Below, piece after piece: positions 18,001-24,000 of a stretch of DNA of 64,000 bases (position 1 is the stretch's first letter; the number at the start of each line of letters is the position of its first letter). Position numbers: made by a program. This DNA is from Gemmatimonadota bacterium (GTDB lineage: Bacteria; Gemmatimonadota; Gemmatimonadetes; Gemmatimonadales; GWC2-71-9): NCBI GenBank assembly GCA_039588295.1, contig JBDHAB010000019.1, forward strand, positions 32,001-96,000, read 5' to 3'.

Positions 18001-21000
18001 CCGGTGCCTACACCTCGCGGCGCCAGTCGCGGCGGAAGACCTGCACGTGGCCACAGTGGTCACAAGCCTCGACGTGCCAGAGCACATCCGGCTCAGCGCT
18101 TGTGACGCCCAGTTTCGCCAGTCCGCCGGAACCCGAGTAGGCATCGGTCTCCAGGCGGGTTGCATAGACGCCTTGCAGACATACCCCGCAGGGTCGTTCC
18201 GGCAGGGATCGCCGCTCACGAGCTGGTGTCTGGGTTGCCGTCATGGGTGTGCTTCTCCGTCTGGACGGGTGGAGGTTGCTACCGGAACCTTAACCCGTCG
18301 CGGGGTCCTGGGCAAAGTAATCTCGGGACCCCTTCATGCGACCTTCATGGAGGCTTCATGGCAGGTGATGAAGCTCGATGGGGTCCTACCCGCCGGAGGG
18401 AGCGGCATGTCCGCGAATGAAGTCGAGCGATCGCTGACGCTGACGGCGAACCCCTGGCTCCGCACCGCCAGCTTCGTCACGGGCGCGGGCATGGTGGTCG
18501 CCTCGGTCGTGACCATGCAGCACTACTTCGCTGCCAACTTCCCATCATCCATCTTCGAGGGGTCGTTCTGCGATCTGAACGCCTTCTTCAACTGTGATAG
18601 CTCCGCCTACTCGGTGATCTCGGCCGTGGCCGGTGTCCCGCTGGGGTACTTCGGGTTGATGGTCGGGGGGCTCGTCATGCTCGGTGCCATGTTTCCATCT
18701 GCGGCATTCGAGCGCACCAACAAGACGATCGCTGTGGTGAACGGCATCGGCGTGGTGGCGCTCTTGGTCTATTCGGTCGCCGTGCTCAAGAGCCTCTGCC
18801 TTCTGTGCACCGGCTACTACGTGTTCGCGCTGCTGAGCCTTGCGCTCTTCTGGCGCTATGGCATTGATGGTGGCCGGCGTGGGCTTGCGCGACGGTTCCT
18901 GCGCCCGTCCACACCGCACCTCGTGGCGTTTGGCGTATGCCTCCTGGGCGGTGCATACGCGCTTGCGTTGTTCCACCGCGCCAAGGAACAGGCGCGATCG
19001 GGTGGGGTGGCTGCCAGGATCGTGGAGCAGTACATCAACCTGCCTCTGGTTCCCAACCCGAGCATCATCTCCCCGTTCATGACCGCCCGTGCTACGGAAC
19101 GGTTCGAGGACGCTCCAATTCGCCTCATCGAGTATGGTGACTTTCTTTGTTCGGACTGTCGCTACCTCAACGAACAGTTGGATCGCCTGAAAGAGGAGTT
19201 CCGGGGTCAGATCAACATCGCGTTTCAGTTCTTCCCGCTCGACGCCCAATGCAACCGCGTCGTGAACAAGGACAAGCATCCGGGCGCCTGCGACCTGTCG
19301 TACATGGCGGCATACGACCCCGCGAAGTTCGCCGCGATCCACGACGAGGTGTTCGCCAACATGACTGCCGCCAAGGATCCTGCCTGGCGCGCCGATCTGG
19401 CCCGCCGCTACGGGGTGGAGGCGGCCCTCGCGGACTCCGCTACCCAAGCGTTGGTGCTGCGCATGATCCAAACGGGGGCGGAGTACGAACAGACTTCGGA
19501 GCGGTACGCATACGGAATCAGATCAACGCCAACGTTGATCCTCAACAACCGCATGGTGATTGGCACGTTTCCCTACGAGCAGCTTCGCGCGATCTTCCAG
19601 GCACTCGTGAATGAGCACGAGCAGGGAGACGAAGGACGGTTTCTCGAGAACTGGGTGGACGACGGCTAGAACCGGGGTCCGTCGATCTCGGCTTCGAGGC
19701 CCTGCACGCTGGGATCCACCGATCCCGCCCGTTACTCATCGCCACACCTGTCCGAGGAATGCCTGAACCTCCGGTACCCCACCCTGGAGGATGAGGTATC
19801 CGTCATGCGGTTCACGCTCGGTGGTCTCGCCGGCGAGCGTGGTCGTCATGAGCTCCTGCACGGCGCGCGGATCGCCGGGGTGCACGCCGAGTGCCCAGCA
19901 GAGTTTGACGAACGCGACCTCGGGCAGCATGTTGGCGAGCGGAACGACCCCGAGCTCTAGGATCTCCCGCCCCGTCTCGTACACGTGCATTTGCACGAAG
20001 CCCCAGAGGGTCTGCAGCGTCATGTACATGTGCACGCCGGCGTCACGTGCCCGCTCGAGTGCCGGGTAGATCTTGCGGTTCACGTGTCCGAGTCCGGTGC
20101 CGGCGATCACGATTCCCTGGTAGCCACGGTCGACGAACGCGTCAATGATGTCCCCGTGCATTCCAGGGTAGTAGTACATGAGCGTCACACGCTCGTTGTA
20201 CTTCGCGAAGATTGTGACGTCTCGATCCTCGCGTCGCGGAAGGAAGTCGTCCTTGAACGGTGTGATCGTGTCGCGATCGACCATTGCGAGGGGGATGTCA
20301 CCCAACGTACGGAACGTGCTTCGGTAGGAGCTGTGCATCTTGCGGACACGGGTGCCGCGGTGCAGCAGGTTGTAGCGATCGGACGTCGGGCCGAACATGC
20401 AGACCATGACCTCGGCAATCGGCCCGTGCGCTGCCGTCCATGTGGCGTTGATGAGGTTCTGCGCCGCGTCGGATGACGGTCGATCGGAGGATCGTTGGCT
20501 CCCCACCAGGACGACCGGCACCGGTGGCCGCTGAACCATGAAGCTCAGTGCGGCTGCTGTGTGATGCATGGTATCGGTGCCATGGCCGATCACGACTCCG
20601 TCGTATCCGTCGGCAATCGCATCACCGATCTTCTCCGCCAACACCAAATACTGCTCCGGGCCCATGTTCTCCGAGAAGACACCGAACAACTTCTCGGTCT
20701 CGAGATTGCAGATGTCGGCCAACTCCGGCACCGACCCGTAGAGCTCTCCGGGGCTGAAGGCGGGGATCACCGCACCGGTGCGATAGTCGAGCCGTGACGC
20801 GATCGTGCCCCCGGTCCCAAATAGCTTCACGCGGGGATTGGCAGGGTCGACCGGAAACGCCTTCTCTGGAATCCTGTAATGCGCCTCCCGATACCCGACC
20901 TTCTCGATCTCGAGCACTGTGTCGTGACGGATACCGACGTTGTACCCGCTCCCCAGCTTGAGCACCAAGTGTAGGTCATCGCTCGTTTCCGAGCGTGGCA

Positions 21001-24000
21001 GCAACAGCCCCTCGAAGTCACCGCGGGTCGTTCGTGCCACGACCTCGCACCACACGGTGATTCCGGAGCGTGCCATCAGGTCGCGCGTCGGGCCGCGATA
21101 GCCGCGGTAGGGATCGCTCTGCTGGTCGCTCATGACGCATGCTCGGGGGCGGGTTCTCGCAACGCGGCAGCCAGACGCTGCCGAATTGCCTGAGGGTCGA
21201 CTCGGCCAAGAAACGCTGGTACGACTTGGCCCATGGCCCACCGCAGCCTCGCGTCGAGAGAGCGTCCGTTGAGCTCGAGCGCCGTTGCCGCAACCTGGGC
21301 AATCCGCTGGTCGAGTCGCGCACCGTCTTGAGGTGCGGGCTGATAGCCCACGACGATTTCGTCGGCGCCGACGTCGGGCTGCCTAGTGAGGTCGTCGAGC
21401 ACCCGCGCCGCTGCCTCGGGGCGGAGCGCGCCGGCTTCCAGCGCGCGGGCAAGGGGACGAAGTCGCGCCGCGTCGGGCAGGGAGGCTGCGCCGCGGCGGG
21501 AGTGGTAGGGCCACCGCTTCTCGAGCGCAGTGGCGAGTCGCCGTGCGGCACTGCGTGACGCCGGCCGTACCTCGTCGTACACATCCGCCCACGGTGCGCT
21601 GGCAAGCCGGCGTGCGCCCCGTGCGTCGAGCCCAAGGTCACGGTACCGTGCCTCCCGTTCCCACGGTCGCTCCGGCAAACGCTCGCGAATCTCCGTCACG
21701 GCGGCGTCGGTGATCGGTAGGGGCGGCGTATCCGTGTCCGGGTACATTCGGTCCGGACCCGGCAGGATCCGCTCGAATCCCGTCGTGCTGTCCGCGTGGG
21801 CCTGGCGCGTTTCGGCAGGCACGCCCACCAACGCTTCGCCGGCGCGCAGCAGCACCTCGCGGGCGGCGGTGGCTGCGTCCGCGTCATCGCCCCACACCAG
21901 TACGAGCGCATCACCGGACTCGGCCCCGACTTCCCGACCGAGGCGCTGCCACACGAGCGGGTCCAGGCCGCCGCGGTCATTCCCGGAATGGGCCAAGAAC
22001 GGGCGGTGTACCGGGCAGGCAATCACGCGCACGCGTTCTGCCAGCTCGTTGGCGAAGGTGGCCCCGGGTTGGGTCGGGTGGTCGAGGAGCTGGTTGAATC
22101 CCGGGAGCCGCACGACACAGATGCGATGTCCGCGGCCGAGCGCCTCGAGGATAGGCCGAGCCGTACACGCACGGAGCAATGAGGCGGCGTCCCCAACCAA
22201 GTGCGACACCTCCCAGGGCCTTCCGGTGGATGGAAGCGCCAGCATCGTCGGTTCGACACCACGCCGGTCGAGCGCGTGCTTGATCCGGAGCAAGTTGAGT
22301 TGGCGAAACGCCTCGACGTGGACCAAACGTGGCAGCCCGCGATGGTGATGTACACCTTTGATCTCGACCCGCCGGCCACCGGCGATCGAGACGTTCACGT
22401 CCTGGCGGGCTGCGCCAGGCCCCCGTCGCACTTTGCCCGTGGCCTGCGCCACTCGTGCCAGGAGCCGTGCACCGGCCTGCAGCTCGAGCGGGGTCAGGAA
22501 CTCTGGTTCCGTGACTGTCTCGGTGAGCGGCATGCCGAGGCGATCGGTGCGGAAGGTGATGCGATGACCGATGTCGGAGACTTCGCGACAGGAGTCCTCC
22601 TCGAGCGACAGCTGCCTGATGCTGAGGTCCCGATCCACACCGAGCTCCGGGGCTCGGAACGGAATCCGCCCGGTCAGACCCACCATGGCCGTTCGCTGGA
22701 AGCCGGTCGGGATCGACCCGTCGAGATACTGCTTGCGCATCACGTGGAGTTCCGAAACCAAGTTGAGATTGAGGAGCTGGGCGACCTCGAGGGCGATACG
22801 CACCGCCTCCCCGTCGATCTCAAACGGCGGGGTATCGTCCATTTCGTAGGTGCAGACCGATCCGCGCTCGAGGAGGTAGACAATCTCCTTGCGTGTCTTG
22901 AACTCCATCAGCGCCGTCCCGTCGTACTCCCCCAACTCGCTCAACGTCGGTCGCATGTGTCGCAGCACTTCACCGTCAACACGCGTGACCCGATGACCGG
23001 GTGGACAGCGGCAGAACAGCTTCGATTTGGTGTGGAGCTGTTGATGCACCTCGAGGCCACCCATGAAGCCCAGCACCTGGTAGTCCTCGTGGCGCAGTTC
23101 CCCGTATGCCCGATCGGGAAAGTCGAGCACGGGATCATGCCGCGGATTGACGTCCCCGGGGGGGCGGACGCCGTGGTTGGGTGCCCCGTTAGGAGGCGTC
23201 AATGGTCTCGTCCATTCGTACGACCATGCGCGCTGCGCCCGTGAGGCGATCCGACCGAGGTTCCGTACGGCACGCCTGAAGATACACGGGGAAGGGAGCG
23301 ACGGTATCGGTACTTGCTCTGTGTCGGTGCGTCGGTTTGTGGCTCAGCGCACAGCGCTCGGTGGTGCGGAGTGGCGCTATTGTGTCCCGGAGTGAGCGAT
23401 GCGACCCCAGCGGCAGGGGTGCGGAACTCCACGGTTGCGAATAGCTTTGTGTTCTCCGACGAAGGACCCACGAGGATGGCCAAAGGCAAACCACCCCAGA
23501 ACCGACATGATGATTTGATGGCGGCGGAGGTCGACAAGCTTCTGAAGAAGCTGCCTCATGCCGACCCCTCCCTGTCGGGGGAGCGCGTGGCGCAGCCCGA
23601 GCCAGGCGCTGCGCCAGGTAGGCCTCCGGTGTCTGGTCACCGCCGTGAGATCCAGGGAGGTGCGCCGAGGGTACCGCGGCCGCGCACACCTGAAGAGGAA
23701 CGCCGAGCGAATCTCGGTGTCTGGGGCCTCGTGGCGCTCGGGGTCGTGCTGGGGGTAGCGTTGACCCAGTGGCCGTACAACGCGGCGTGCGGTCTTGCGT
23801 TGCTGTGGTATGTGGGGGCCGTCGCCACCATGCTCGTCGTCGGTGGGTGGTGCGCTTTGTCATCGTGGGACCAGCGGCTTGGGGTCGCGCACGTTCTGTC
23901 CCTCATACTCGTGTTCTGGGGAATCGTGCTGTCCGCTGAGGTGATTCTCCCTCGCATCGGGTATTCCGTCGACAAAGCGACCTGGCGTTGTCGGGTGGCT

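Follow-up and report, generated by a model that had tools for sequence, protein, structure and literature searches.

GatDE is stated to be exclusive to archaea in passages of PMC2811023, PMC2330236 and PMC9499178, where its preference for an A1-U72 pair is also used to explain why archaea and bacteria differ in making Gln-tRNA. Here we describe a gatE-gatD operon in a 64,000-nucleotide stretch of a Gemmatimonadota contig (the window). Its products share subunits, domain order, insertion domain, catalytic residues and fold with the archaeal enzymes of M. thermautotrophicus (2D6F) and P. abyssi (1ZQ1); however, the host is a bacterium with GlnRS, a bacterial GluRS and U1-A72 tRNA-Gln. The bacterial proteins also differ from the archaeal ones at the Gln240 site, in the first-pair loop and in the GXXAXGX motif, they form a separate clade on a long stem, and their genes are usually coupled as gatE-gatD and linked to glnS or to a glutamine-synthetase-like gene. 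The net reaction is expected to be that of bacterial GatCAB (S. aureus 3IP4, T. maritima 3AL0), and the U1-A72 tRNAs are the same, but GatCAB, which would be the ancestral Gln route of the family, is deleted here, with the GatA amidase and GatC absent. An amidotransferase is likewise kept beside both direct synthetases in Thermus, Deinococcus and Bdellovibrio, as described in section 9 of PMC2330236 and in parts of PMC4206432; their GatCAB serves asparagine via a non-discriminating AspRS, whereas in the present genome the context suggests a link to glutamine, and homologues of AsnB are present. NCBI already labels the bacterial proteins GatE, and our literature search found no paper discussing bacterial GatE.

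The gatE-gatD operon

The gene for the kinase/amidotransferase subunit, gatE, spans 21130..23202 (-) and probably encodes 690 aa from a TTG at 23202; profile, PDB and orthologue alignments and the AlphaFold2 fold support its identity. An alternative GTG start at 23130 yields a 666-aa form (21130-23130 (-)), to which residue numbers here refer. The N-terminal extension between the two starts (23131..23202 (-)) holds a motif that is conserved in most close orthologues in an alignment of 65 GatE sequences, and TTG 23202 is therefore probably the true start; thus the gene of the preliminary description stands, and its 666-aa boundary probably does not. The asparaginase-type glutaminase subunit is encoded by gatD at 19736..21133 (-) (465 aa), with a GatD_N domain at 20897-21019 and the residues Thr110, Thr186, Asp187 and Lys265. 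The gatE stop and the gatD start overlap in an ATGA (21130..21133 (-)), suggesting translational coupling. GatE scores 391 bits with TIGR00134 (cut 320) and 449.5 with NF003107, just below its cut of 456, and GatB models score far below cut. GatD scores 483 bits with TIGR02153 (cut 324), 478 with NF003217 (cut 310) and 47 with Pfam GatD_N (cut 25.7). The top PDB matches are archaeal GatE (1zq1, E 1e-84; 2d6f, E 1e-78) and archaeal GatD (E 3e-112 and 1e-111). The operon is intact, as had been proposed, and its catalytic residues are retained. GatD combines the type I asparaginase fold with GatD_N; a free-standing type I L-asparaginase was ruled out by GatD_N, the gatE partner and the higher score of the GatD model (483 against 367 for TIGR00519).

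Contamination or recent import of gatE-gatD was ruled out: GC3 is 0.77 and 0.80, compared with 0.80-0.84 in four synthetases, and the flanking genes are found again beside gatE in 3-5 related loci. The gatD gene is present at 67 of 80 gatE loci, the remaining 13 being cut off no more than 164 bp from the gatE match, and GatD identity across phyla is 63-86%. This coupling is what bears here on the alpha2-beta2 GatD-GatE tetramer and its ammonia tunnel, both features of GatDE. A plasmid search returned one partial archaeal gatE, which was left out of the analysis.

Conserved and altered regions of the two subunits

GatE His29, Glu177 and Glu204 align with His15, Glu157 and Glu184 of M. thermautotrophicus GatE, given as the cradle Mg ligands in a passage of PMC2330236, and are kept in 54, 55 and 55 of 56 bacterial-type rows. 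The AlphaFold2 model of GatE (pLDDT 87.7) has 1zq1 and 2d6f as best folds. In GatD, the Thr/Thr/Asp/Lys set is kept in the alignment; by alignment, we take it to comprise the Thr nucleophile and the Thr-Lys-Asp triad. The AspRS-like insertion domain that GatE adds relative to GatB (21826..22263 (-), about residues 290-435) aligns unbroken to 1zq1/2d6f and gives Foldseek matches to AspRS (E 4e-4), and a Pfam search for GAD found no match in it.

The altered regions include candidate tRNA contacts. The GatE loop of residues 235-244 (22399..22428 (-)) occupies the position of the GatB 3-10 turn beside tRNA pair 1-72, with 8 residues against 10 in GatB; it carries Thr-Ile in archaeal-type GatE and mostly Ala-Ala in the bacterial clade. 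Residues 258-263 (22342..22359 (-)) include the site of M. thermautotrophicus Gln240, at which 72 of 75 archaeal-type rows have Gln; it is His261 here and varies across the bacterial clade. We take Gln240 to be the A1-U72 reader, an assignment for which our literature search found no published support. About 37 further positions differ between the two clades, and the motif swap near pair 1-72 therefore need not involve tRNA; the N-terminal cradle of bacterial GatE has many bacteria-specific invariant residues. The helical YqeY-like tail (21151..21363 (-), about residues 590-660) is present in the AlphaFold2 model and is poorly conserved, conservation dropping to about 40% in the 65-row alignment; the archaeal GXXAXGX tail motif is absent from it and from the 65-row consensus.

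Loss of GatCAB and co-occurrence with GlnRS

In this genome (96.3% complete), the sole GatB_N match is GatE itself, and the one amidase has 29% identity to the GatA query. In two genomes of the same genus, gatCAB lies between flanks that here sit less than 180 bp apart in mid-contig; 300 bases over the junction contain neither N nor a gatCAB remnant, which rules out an assembly gap, and the loss, judged for GatC from this synteny, is a real deletion. Both the absence of GatCAB and the genus counts of the preliminary description (GatE in 9 of 9 genomes, GatB in 2 of 9) are upheld by this analysis. Two genus members that appeared to rely on GatDE alone proved to be contig breaks.

The family was sampled with 100 genomes, 17 with GatE and 83 without, which as kin are not independent. 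GatB is missing in 13/17 genomes with GatE and in 5/83 without, and GlnRS is present in 17/17 and 18/83, respectively. GatB occurs in 62 of the 65 GlnRS-less genomes and AsnRS in 98 of 100; therefore GatCAB in this family is mainly a Gln route. GatB or GatE is retained in 33 of 35 GlnRS-bearing genomes, the other two having neither. The 17 GatE genomes represent 10 genera and probably form one sub-branch, so that the family associations may reflect one or two events. GlnRS accompanies GatE in 47/50 genomes of mixed phyla; in a second phylum no such link was seen (GlnRS in 11/18 genomes with GatE vs 29/50), and the notion that GatE only ever occurs with GlnRS fails there, 7 of the 18 GatE genomes having no GlnRS. 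GatB accompanies GatE in 21/50 mixed-phylum and 13/18 second-phylum genomes; thus, the earlier proposal that GatDE is retained instead of GatCAB applies to this family and not generally. Genomes in which GatDE could be the sole Gln route are rare (one, G442, and in addition G048).

Host synthetases and tRNAs

The genome encodes GlnRS, one GluRS, AsnRS and AspRS, in agreement with the reported retention of GlnRS and AsnRS. Its GluRS is bacterial (445 bits, cut 290; 106 with the archaeal GluRS model, cut 402); the host thus pairs a bacterial GluRS with GlnRS, in contrast to the archaeal setting of an archaeal-type non-discriminating GluRS partner and no GlnRS. The anticodon-reading site of GluRS is Arg in 30/30 family enzymes, 11 of them from GlnRS-less genomes, and therefore does not label the host GluRS as discriminating. 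The following residue is Ser in 11/11 GlnRS-less and Ala in 17/19 GlnRS-bearing genomes, a replacement that may mark a shift to discrimination.

Both host tRNA-Gln genes have U1-A72 rather than the A1-U72 of archaeal GatDE substrates, and A72 is found in 132 of 136 tRNA-like matches from 68 GatE genomes. No archaeal GatDE is known to read U1-A72. In the host tRNA-Glu, position 1 is G and the D-loop is longer, so that the two known cues for discrimination are both available here. A private archaeal-type tRNA-Gln was found neither in this genome nor beside gatE in 80 loci, the two A1-U72 genes detected being in other genomes (G038 and G048). The A73 discriminator was rejected as a GatDE adaptation: it occurs in 10/10 tRNA-like sequences among 11 matches from five GatE-less family genomes.

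Origin of bacterial GatE

The bacterial GatE sequences group together as a single clade, as the preliminary description had stated; support for the clade is strong and its stem is long. The earlier placement of this clade inside archaea next to Thermoplasmatota is not supported. Constraining the clade with six Thermoplasmata-like rows was rejected (AU p 4.9e-14). The unconstrained tree places it beside Heimdallarchaeota-labelled GatE (SH-aLRT 96), and a tree that unites all archaeal-type rows in a single clade performs equally well (lnL 2.4 higher, p 0.56), so that the single old archaea-to-bacteria transfer proposed earlier does not follow from the trees. The sister of bacterial GatE is thus either a Heimdallarchaeota-labelled GatE or the archaeal GatE as a whole. 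We tentatively raise the doubtful but possible scenario that bacterial GatDE is the sister of all archaeal GatDE, dating from the bacteria-archaea split, surviving patchily in many uncultured phyla with its own U1-A72 reading and able to displace GatCAB, rather than a loan from a living archaeal group. If so, GatDE would go back to LUCA and survive in bacteria as well, and would not be a signature of archaea.

Functional assignment

The conserved active sites suggest that the chemistry of bacterial GatDE is probably the known one: GatD would free ammonia from Gln or Asn, and GatE would phosphorylate Glu-tRNA(Gln) and amidate it to yield Gln-tRNA(Gln), as the archaeal enzyme does. GatDE is characterized by converting Glu-tRNA(Gln) but not Asp-tRNA(Asn) and by a glutaminase that tRNA activates. 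On balance, we favor a rescue role for bacterial GatDE as a Glu-tRNA(Gln) amidotransferase: it would act on tRNA that a non-discriminating GluRS has mischarged. The family would ancestrally have used such a GluRS with GatCAB; one branch would have acquired GlnRS and GatDE, often as a gatE-gatD-glnS operon, with deletion of gatCAB following later. GlnRS would supply most Gln-tRNA directly; the amidotransferase would still be needed because GluRS presumably still loads Glu on tRNA(Gln), and GatDE, its first-pair site altered to accept U1-A72, would rescue this product. The gene neighborhoods are consistent with this assignment: glnS immediately follows gatD in 7/17 family genomes, and glnS lies near gatE in 9/80 loci and gltX in 4/80. 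The recurring neighbors in the 80 loci are all Glu/Gln tRNA or glutamine genes. One neighbor cluster read as fumarase is the antisense frame of glnS. In second-phylum GatE genomes that have GatB and no GlnRS (6 of the 7 GlnRS-less ones), the rescue role looks redundant.

It is unlikely, in our view, that GatDE instead serves nitrogen economy as a parallel main Gln-tRNA path at low free glutamine, drawing amide from Asn or from the Gln of a dedicated glutamine synthetase and leaving GlnRS to work when glutamine is plentiful. A gene for a divergent glutamine-synthetase-like protein (138 bits with TIGR00653, cut 429) directly follows gatD in 8/80 loci and 3/9 family regions, a more distant one lies beside gatE in 4/18 second-phylum regions, and archaeal GatDE is described in parts of PMC2330236 as using Asn and Gln about equally, its section 9 proposing metabolic reasons for retaining indirect routes. 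However, a canonical glutamine synthetase (508 bits against 429) is encoded in this genome and the gatD-linked one is missing, a promoter (sigma-70) and terminator scan gave nothing, with no regulatory site found upstream, and the same putative non-discriminating GluRS is needed. The near mutual exclusion of GatE and GatB in the family, the U1-A72 pair of the host tRNA-Asn and the loss of the GXXAXGX motif, implicated in rejecting Asp-tRNA(Asn) in a passage of PMC2811023, would suit a dual Glu/Asp amidotransferase also forming Asn-tRNA(Asn). We consider this improbable: the retained insertion domain is predicted in part of PMC2943598 to exclude AspRS, AsnRS is nearly universal in the family, this genome has four AsnB homologues, and no aspS, asnS or tRNA-Asn was seen near gatE in 80 loci. 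The host AspRS also has Leu, not His, at a putative discrimination site. We take His at this site to be a mark of non-discriminating enzymes. This motif was not found in PMC4206432.

GlnRS itself might be the partner of GatDE, which would either correct GlnRS-loaded Glu or lend its tRNA-binding tail, a reading to which we give little credence. Of the host proteins, GlnRS is most closely related to the archaeal GluRS normally bound by GatDE (322 bits with the archaeal GluRS model, against 106 for GluRS) and is of the YqeY-fusion type without the tail; it accompanies GatE throughout the family and in most mixed-phylum genomes, with operon linkage in three phyla, and archaeal GatDE is reported in part of PMC2943598 to bind non-discriminating GluRS without tRNA. 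Yet the host GlnRS looks canonical (724 bits, cut 426), its gene lies on a different contig from gatE-gatD, 3/12 gatE-linked GlnRS have their own YqeY tail, and GlnRS-less GatE genomes exist in the second phylum. A predicted complex of GatE with GlnRS, run without controls, scored 0.00 and is counted neither for nor against this reading. Least probable of all is a non-translating target, such as a private RNA or a carrier-bound or free carboxylate. The changed features are tRNA contacts, the tail is weakly conserved, the cradle has its bacteria-specific residues and rarely is GatDE a genome's sole potential Gln route; but every tRNA-binding domain is present and folds well in the model, gatCAB loss tracks GatDE presence, and neither the gatE neighbors nor the search for a private tRNA-Gln points away from translation.

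The genome described here is one ordinary member of the bacterial GatE clade. Its GatDE has probably been retuned to bacterial tRNA and probably serves for repair, alongside the enzyme that makes Gln-tRNA directly. A widespread bacterial clade in U1-A72 cells breaks GatDE as an archaeal marker, and bacterial and archaeal GatE offer a natural enzyme pair for mapping first-pair recognition. The finding bears on two questions posed in passages of the reviews, namely whether GatDE was present in LUCA and why indirect routes persist beside direct ones.

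The gatE-gatD operon

The minus-strand genes gatE (21130-23130; 666 aa from GTG) and gatD (19736-21133; 465 aa) are coupled by an ATGA overlap. The GatE protein scores over the cut-off of TIGR00134 (391 vs. 320 bits), slightly under that of NF003107 (449.5 vs. 456 bits), and well below every cut-off of the GatB models; the GatD protein exceeds the cut-offs of both GatD models and contains the GatD_N domain. The nearest solved structures for both subunits are archaeal GatE and GatD, and the predicted AlphaFold2 structure of GatE (pLDDT 87.7) matches 1zq1 and 2d6f best, then GatB, and then AspRS via the insertion domain. 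The overlap and these matches uphold the operon reported in the preliminary description. Translation of gatE probably begins at a TTG codon (position 23202), giving 690 aa, because most close orthologs have a conserved motif upstream of the GTG. The closest loci among the matches listed are labeled Gemmatimonadota. The neighboring genes in the window are unrelated, namely a VKOR plus DsbA-like fusion gene (18251-19669, plus strand) convergent with gatD, and a divergent membrane protein gene. This GatDE resembles the archaeal enzyme in the family membership of GatE and GatD and, as judged from sequence, in its mode of working; however, three archaeal features that we tested (A1-U72 tRNA, the tail motif, and an archaeal GluRS without GlnRS) are absent here, and thus it is a variant rather than a plain member of the archaeal system.

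Loss of gatCAB and distribution of GatDE

The single GatB_N match in this genome (96.3% complete) is GatE itself, and the only amidase is 29% identical to GatA. Within the genus, we obtained the same counts as before, GatE in 9/9 and GatB in 2/9 genomes. Both GatB-bearing genomes carry a 3.2-kb gatA and gatB stretch between two flanks, which in the studied genome are separated by 166-176 bp, mid-contig in C40 (41461-41637), with neither N nor a gatCAB remnant at the junction. The flanks closed mid-contig lift the main caveat attached earlier to the absence of GatCAB; the loss is real. GlnRS and AsnRS are indeed retained beside GatDE, together with one bacterial GluRS, four AsnB homologs and a canonical glutamine synthetase. 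The only AspRS gene (contig C38, near 26690) has a frame break in which a short stretch is missing, probably an assembly error.

The locus scan yielded at least 566 confirmed stretches, from which 80 loci were kept, representing Gemmatimonadota, Krumholzibacteriota, Eisenbacteria, Myxococcota/Deltaproteobacteria, Planctomycetota, Acidobacteriota, Bacteroidota, Ignavibacteria, and others. The gatD gene is present at 67 loci, and the remaining 13 end at most 164 bp from the gatE match; identities among the loci listed are 63-86% for GatD and 42-85% for GatE. Fifty genomes from these loci encode GatB in 21 and GlnRS in 47 cases.

In a sample of 100 genomes of the family, each at least 90% complete, we found GatE in 17 and GatB in 82 (one a fragment), both in 4, neither in 5, and AsnRS in 98. 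GlnRS was detected in 34 by profile (some partial) and in genome G127, where glnS begins directly after gatD at the contig end. GlnRS is thus present in 17/17 GatE genomes vs. 18/83 others; an amidotransferase is kept in 33 of the 35 GlnRS-bearing genomes, and GatB in 62 of the 65 lacking GlnRS. The Fisher p-values for these associations, near 1e-9, are overstated because the 17 GatE genomes represent 10 genera, their GluRS sequences all fall in the closer half, the samples overlap, and one row (G107) is unpublished. In a second phylum, that of G038, GatE occurs in 20/301 genomes; among 18 new GatE genomes, GlnRS is found in 11 (vs. 29/50 without GatE) and GatB in 13, including six of the seven without GlnRS, and AsnRS in all five of these seven that were checked. 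Since this phylum has no GlnRS link and GatB is common there, the studied family's dependence on GlnRS and its near-exclusion of GatB are traits of its own, not laws. The earlier claim that GatDE, not GatCAB, is the retained amidotransferase therefore holds for the genus and family, but not for the second phylum or the mixed set of 50 genomes. G048 showed neither GlnRS nor GatB and, if its assembly is complete, could make Gln-tRNA by GatDE alone; G442 (locus L166), where gatE and gatD were found but GlnRS and GatB were not, is a second candidate for this or an incomplete genome. G050 has two gatE-like matches (C271, C353), and G391 two gatB genes (C167, C162).

tRNA substrates and GatE sequence changes

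Both tRNA-Gln genes of the studied genome have U1-A72 and A73; its tRNA-Asn has U1-A72, and its tRNA-Glu has G1 and a longer D-loop. Pattern searches for tRNA-Gln across 68 GatE genomes yielded 168 rows (11, 113, and 44); visual inspection removed 32 of these as chance hits, duplicates or odd cases. The remaining 136 rows comprise 132 with A72, two with U72 and two with C72, the pattern being blind to G72 in the 113- and 44-row searches and position 1 being read directly for 12 only; with such prevalence of A72, the archaeal A1-U72 substrate rule fails clade-wide at the level of predicted tRNA genes. Exceptions to U1-A72 occur at loci L098/L103 (G038), L145 (G048), and L146 (G008), where tRNA-Gln(UUG) carries A1-U72 (two GatE genomes) or G1-C72 (one). 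The studied genome also contains a tRNA-Sec gene (C40, 24489-24585) and, on lower-GC contig C14 (60%), an array of 19 tRNA genes including tRNA-His with an ATG anticodon (47647-63751), probably a mobile element.

We compared 56 bacterial-type and 75 archaeal-type GatE rows, split by tree (22 locus rows together with the 109 of 150 representatives that passed as full length). Both groups conserve the Mg ligands. At the site of Gln240, which we take to be the A1-U72 reader and for whose role our literature search found no confirming paper, archaeal-type rows have Gln in 72/75 cases, while the bacterial clade is variable (Pro 24, His 8, Ser 8, Asp 6). Neither this GatE nor the consensus of 65 aligned GatE rows conserves the GXXAXGX tail motif. 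The loop at the place of the GatB 3-10 turn, described for the first pair in PMC2811023, reads Thr-Ile (57 and 66 of 75) vs. mostly Ala-Ala (43 and 34 of 56). These three changes would fit retuned tRNA recognition, but about 37 positions differ between the groups, many in the N-terminal cradle, so the changes may have nothing to do with tRNA.

GluRS, gene context and the proposed role

The GluRS of the studied genome has Arg at a site, presumably relevant to discrimination, that is Arg in E. coli and Lys in T. maritima GluRS2. Arg was found in 30/30 family GluRS fetched, 11 of them from GlnRS-less genomes, which must glutamylate tRNA(Gln); Arg therefore has no diagnostic value in this family, which leaves a non-discriminating GluRS plausible. 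The following residue is Ser in 11/11 GlnRS-less and Ala in 17/19 GlnRS-bearing genomes, which either points against such an enzyme or is a mere kinship signal. One internal stop codon was flagged in each of the GluRS matches at L107, L109 (G057, G117), L122, L126, and L131, and may reflect alignment overrun at the gene end.

We somewhat favor a role in which GluRS is still promiscuous and leaves Glu-tRNA(Gln), which GatDE would amidate alongside GlnRS, making GatCAB dispensable. Elsewhere, the recurring gatE neighbors are glutamine genes: among the 80 loci, glnS is close to gatE in nine and immediately after gatD in five (1 kb of room being available in 53), gltX is divergent from gatE in four, and a sequence-divergent glutamine-synthetase-like gene immediately follows gatD in eight. 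In the family, glnS immediately follows gatD in 7/17 GatE genomes; of 18 regions of the second phylum, three have glnS directly upstream and four have a synthetase-like gene next to gatE. Neither aspS nor asnS nor a tRNA-Asn gene turned up in the 80 loci. Of the rival roles for GatDE, a nitrogen-economy route is rather unlikely, a dual Glu/Asp enzyme improbable, service as a GlnRS partner slightly more so, and a substrate other than Glu-tRNA(Gln) the least probable reading.

Several loci deviate from the usual arrangement. At L014 (7716-11381), gatE and gatD form a single 1221-aa frame, with the usual overlap in its close relative L073, and the C-terminus of protein P0048 (943 aa) is also GatD-like; these are natural fusions or sequencing slips. 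L031 has an amino-acid racemase gene (10130-10894; TIGR00035, 131 bits vs. cut-off 93) between gatE and gatD, before glnS. Loci L158, L159, L162, L163, and L173, from small second-phylum genomes without GlnRS, have gatE and gatD in convergent instead of co-directional orientation, and in four of them a glutamine-synthetase-like gene precedes gatE. The five genomes of this kind that were checked encode AsnRS, and their AspRS carries the His marker that we assume to indicate non-discriminating enzymes.

Origin of bacterial GatE

Bacterial-type GatE forms one clade in every tree, as proposed previously, with support of SH 1.0 (139 rows), 100 (61 rows, LG+C20+F+G4), and 99 (17 second-phylum rows added). 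In the 61-row tree, its sister is P0041, from a cluster labeled Heimdallarchaeota (support 96), and the non-Asgard archaeal rows, including Thermoplasmata-like ones, stand apart as their own group (99). The placement next to Thermoplasmatota was contradicted: a forced group of bacteria and six Thermoplasmata-like rows, chosen from an earlier tree and one of them named, was rejected (p 4.9e-14). Nesting inside archaeal GatE, and with it an archaea-to-bacteria transfer, is not required, as the 34 archaeal-type rows (six named) forced together fit equally well (p 0.56; 2.4 log units above the quick free tree). These trees come from quick searches with a long GatB stem, bacterial GatB as sole outgroup and uneven composition, and the deepest 'bacterial' rows, without assigned host, could be archaeal. 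We tentatively lean toward transfer from an Asgard-like archaeon; a position as sister to all archaeal GatE is a somewhat weaker possibility, and other donors are unlikely.

A bacterial protein is already named GatE by NCBI. The titles and abstract openings found do not mention bacterial GatDE, although subscription journals were thinly covered and absence from print is not established. The present analysis adds the clean gatCAB deletion, the pattern across the family, the departure of the tRNA from the archaeal rule along with the motif changes, and a revised view of the origin that keeps more than one probable source. As relayed in PMC9499178, GatDE has been proposed to have been present in LUCA and retained by archaea alone; a deep bacterial GatE branch, if true, would fit the presence of GatDE in LUCA.
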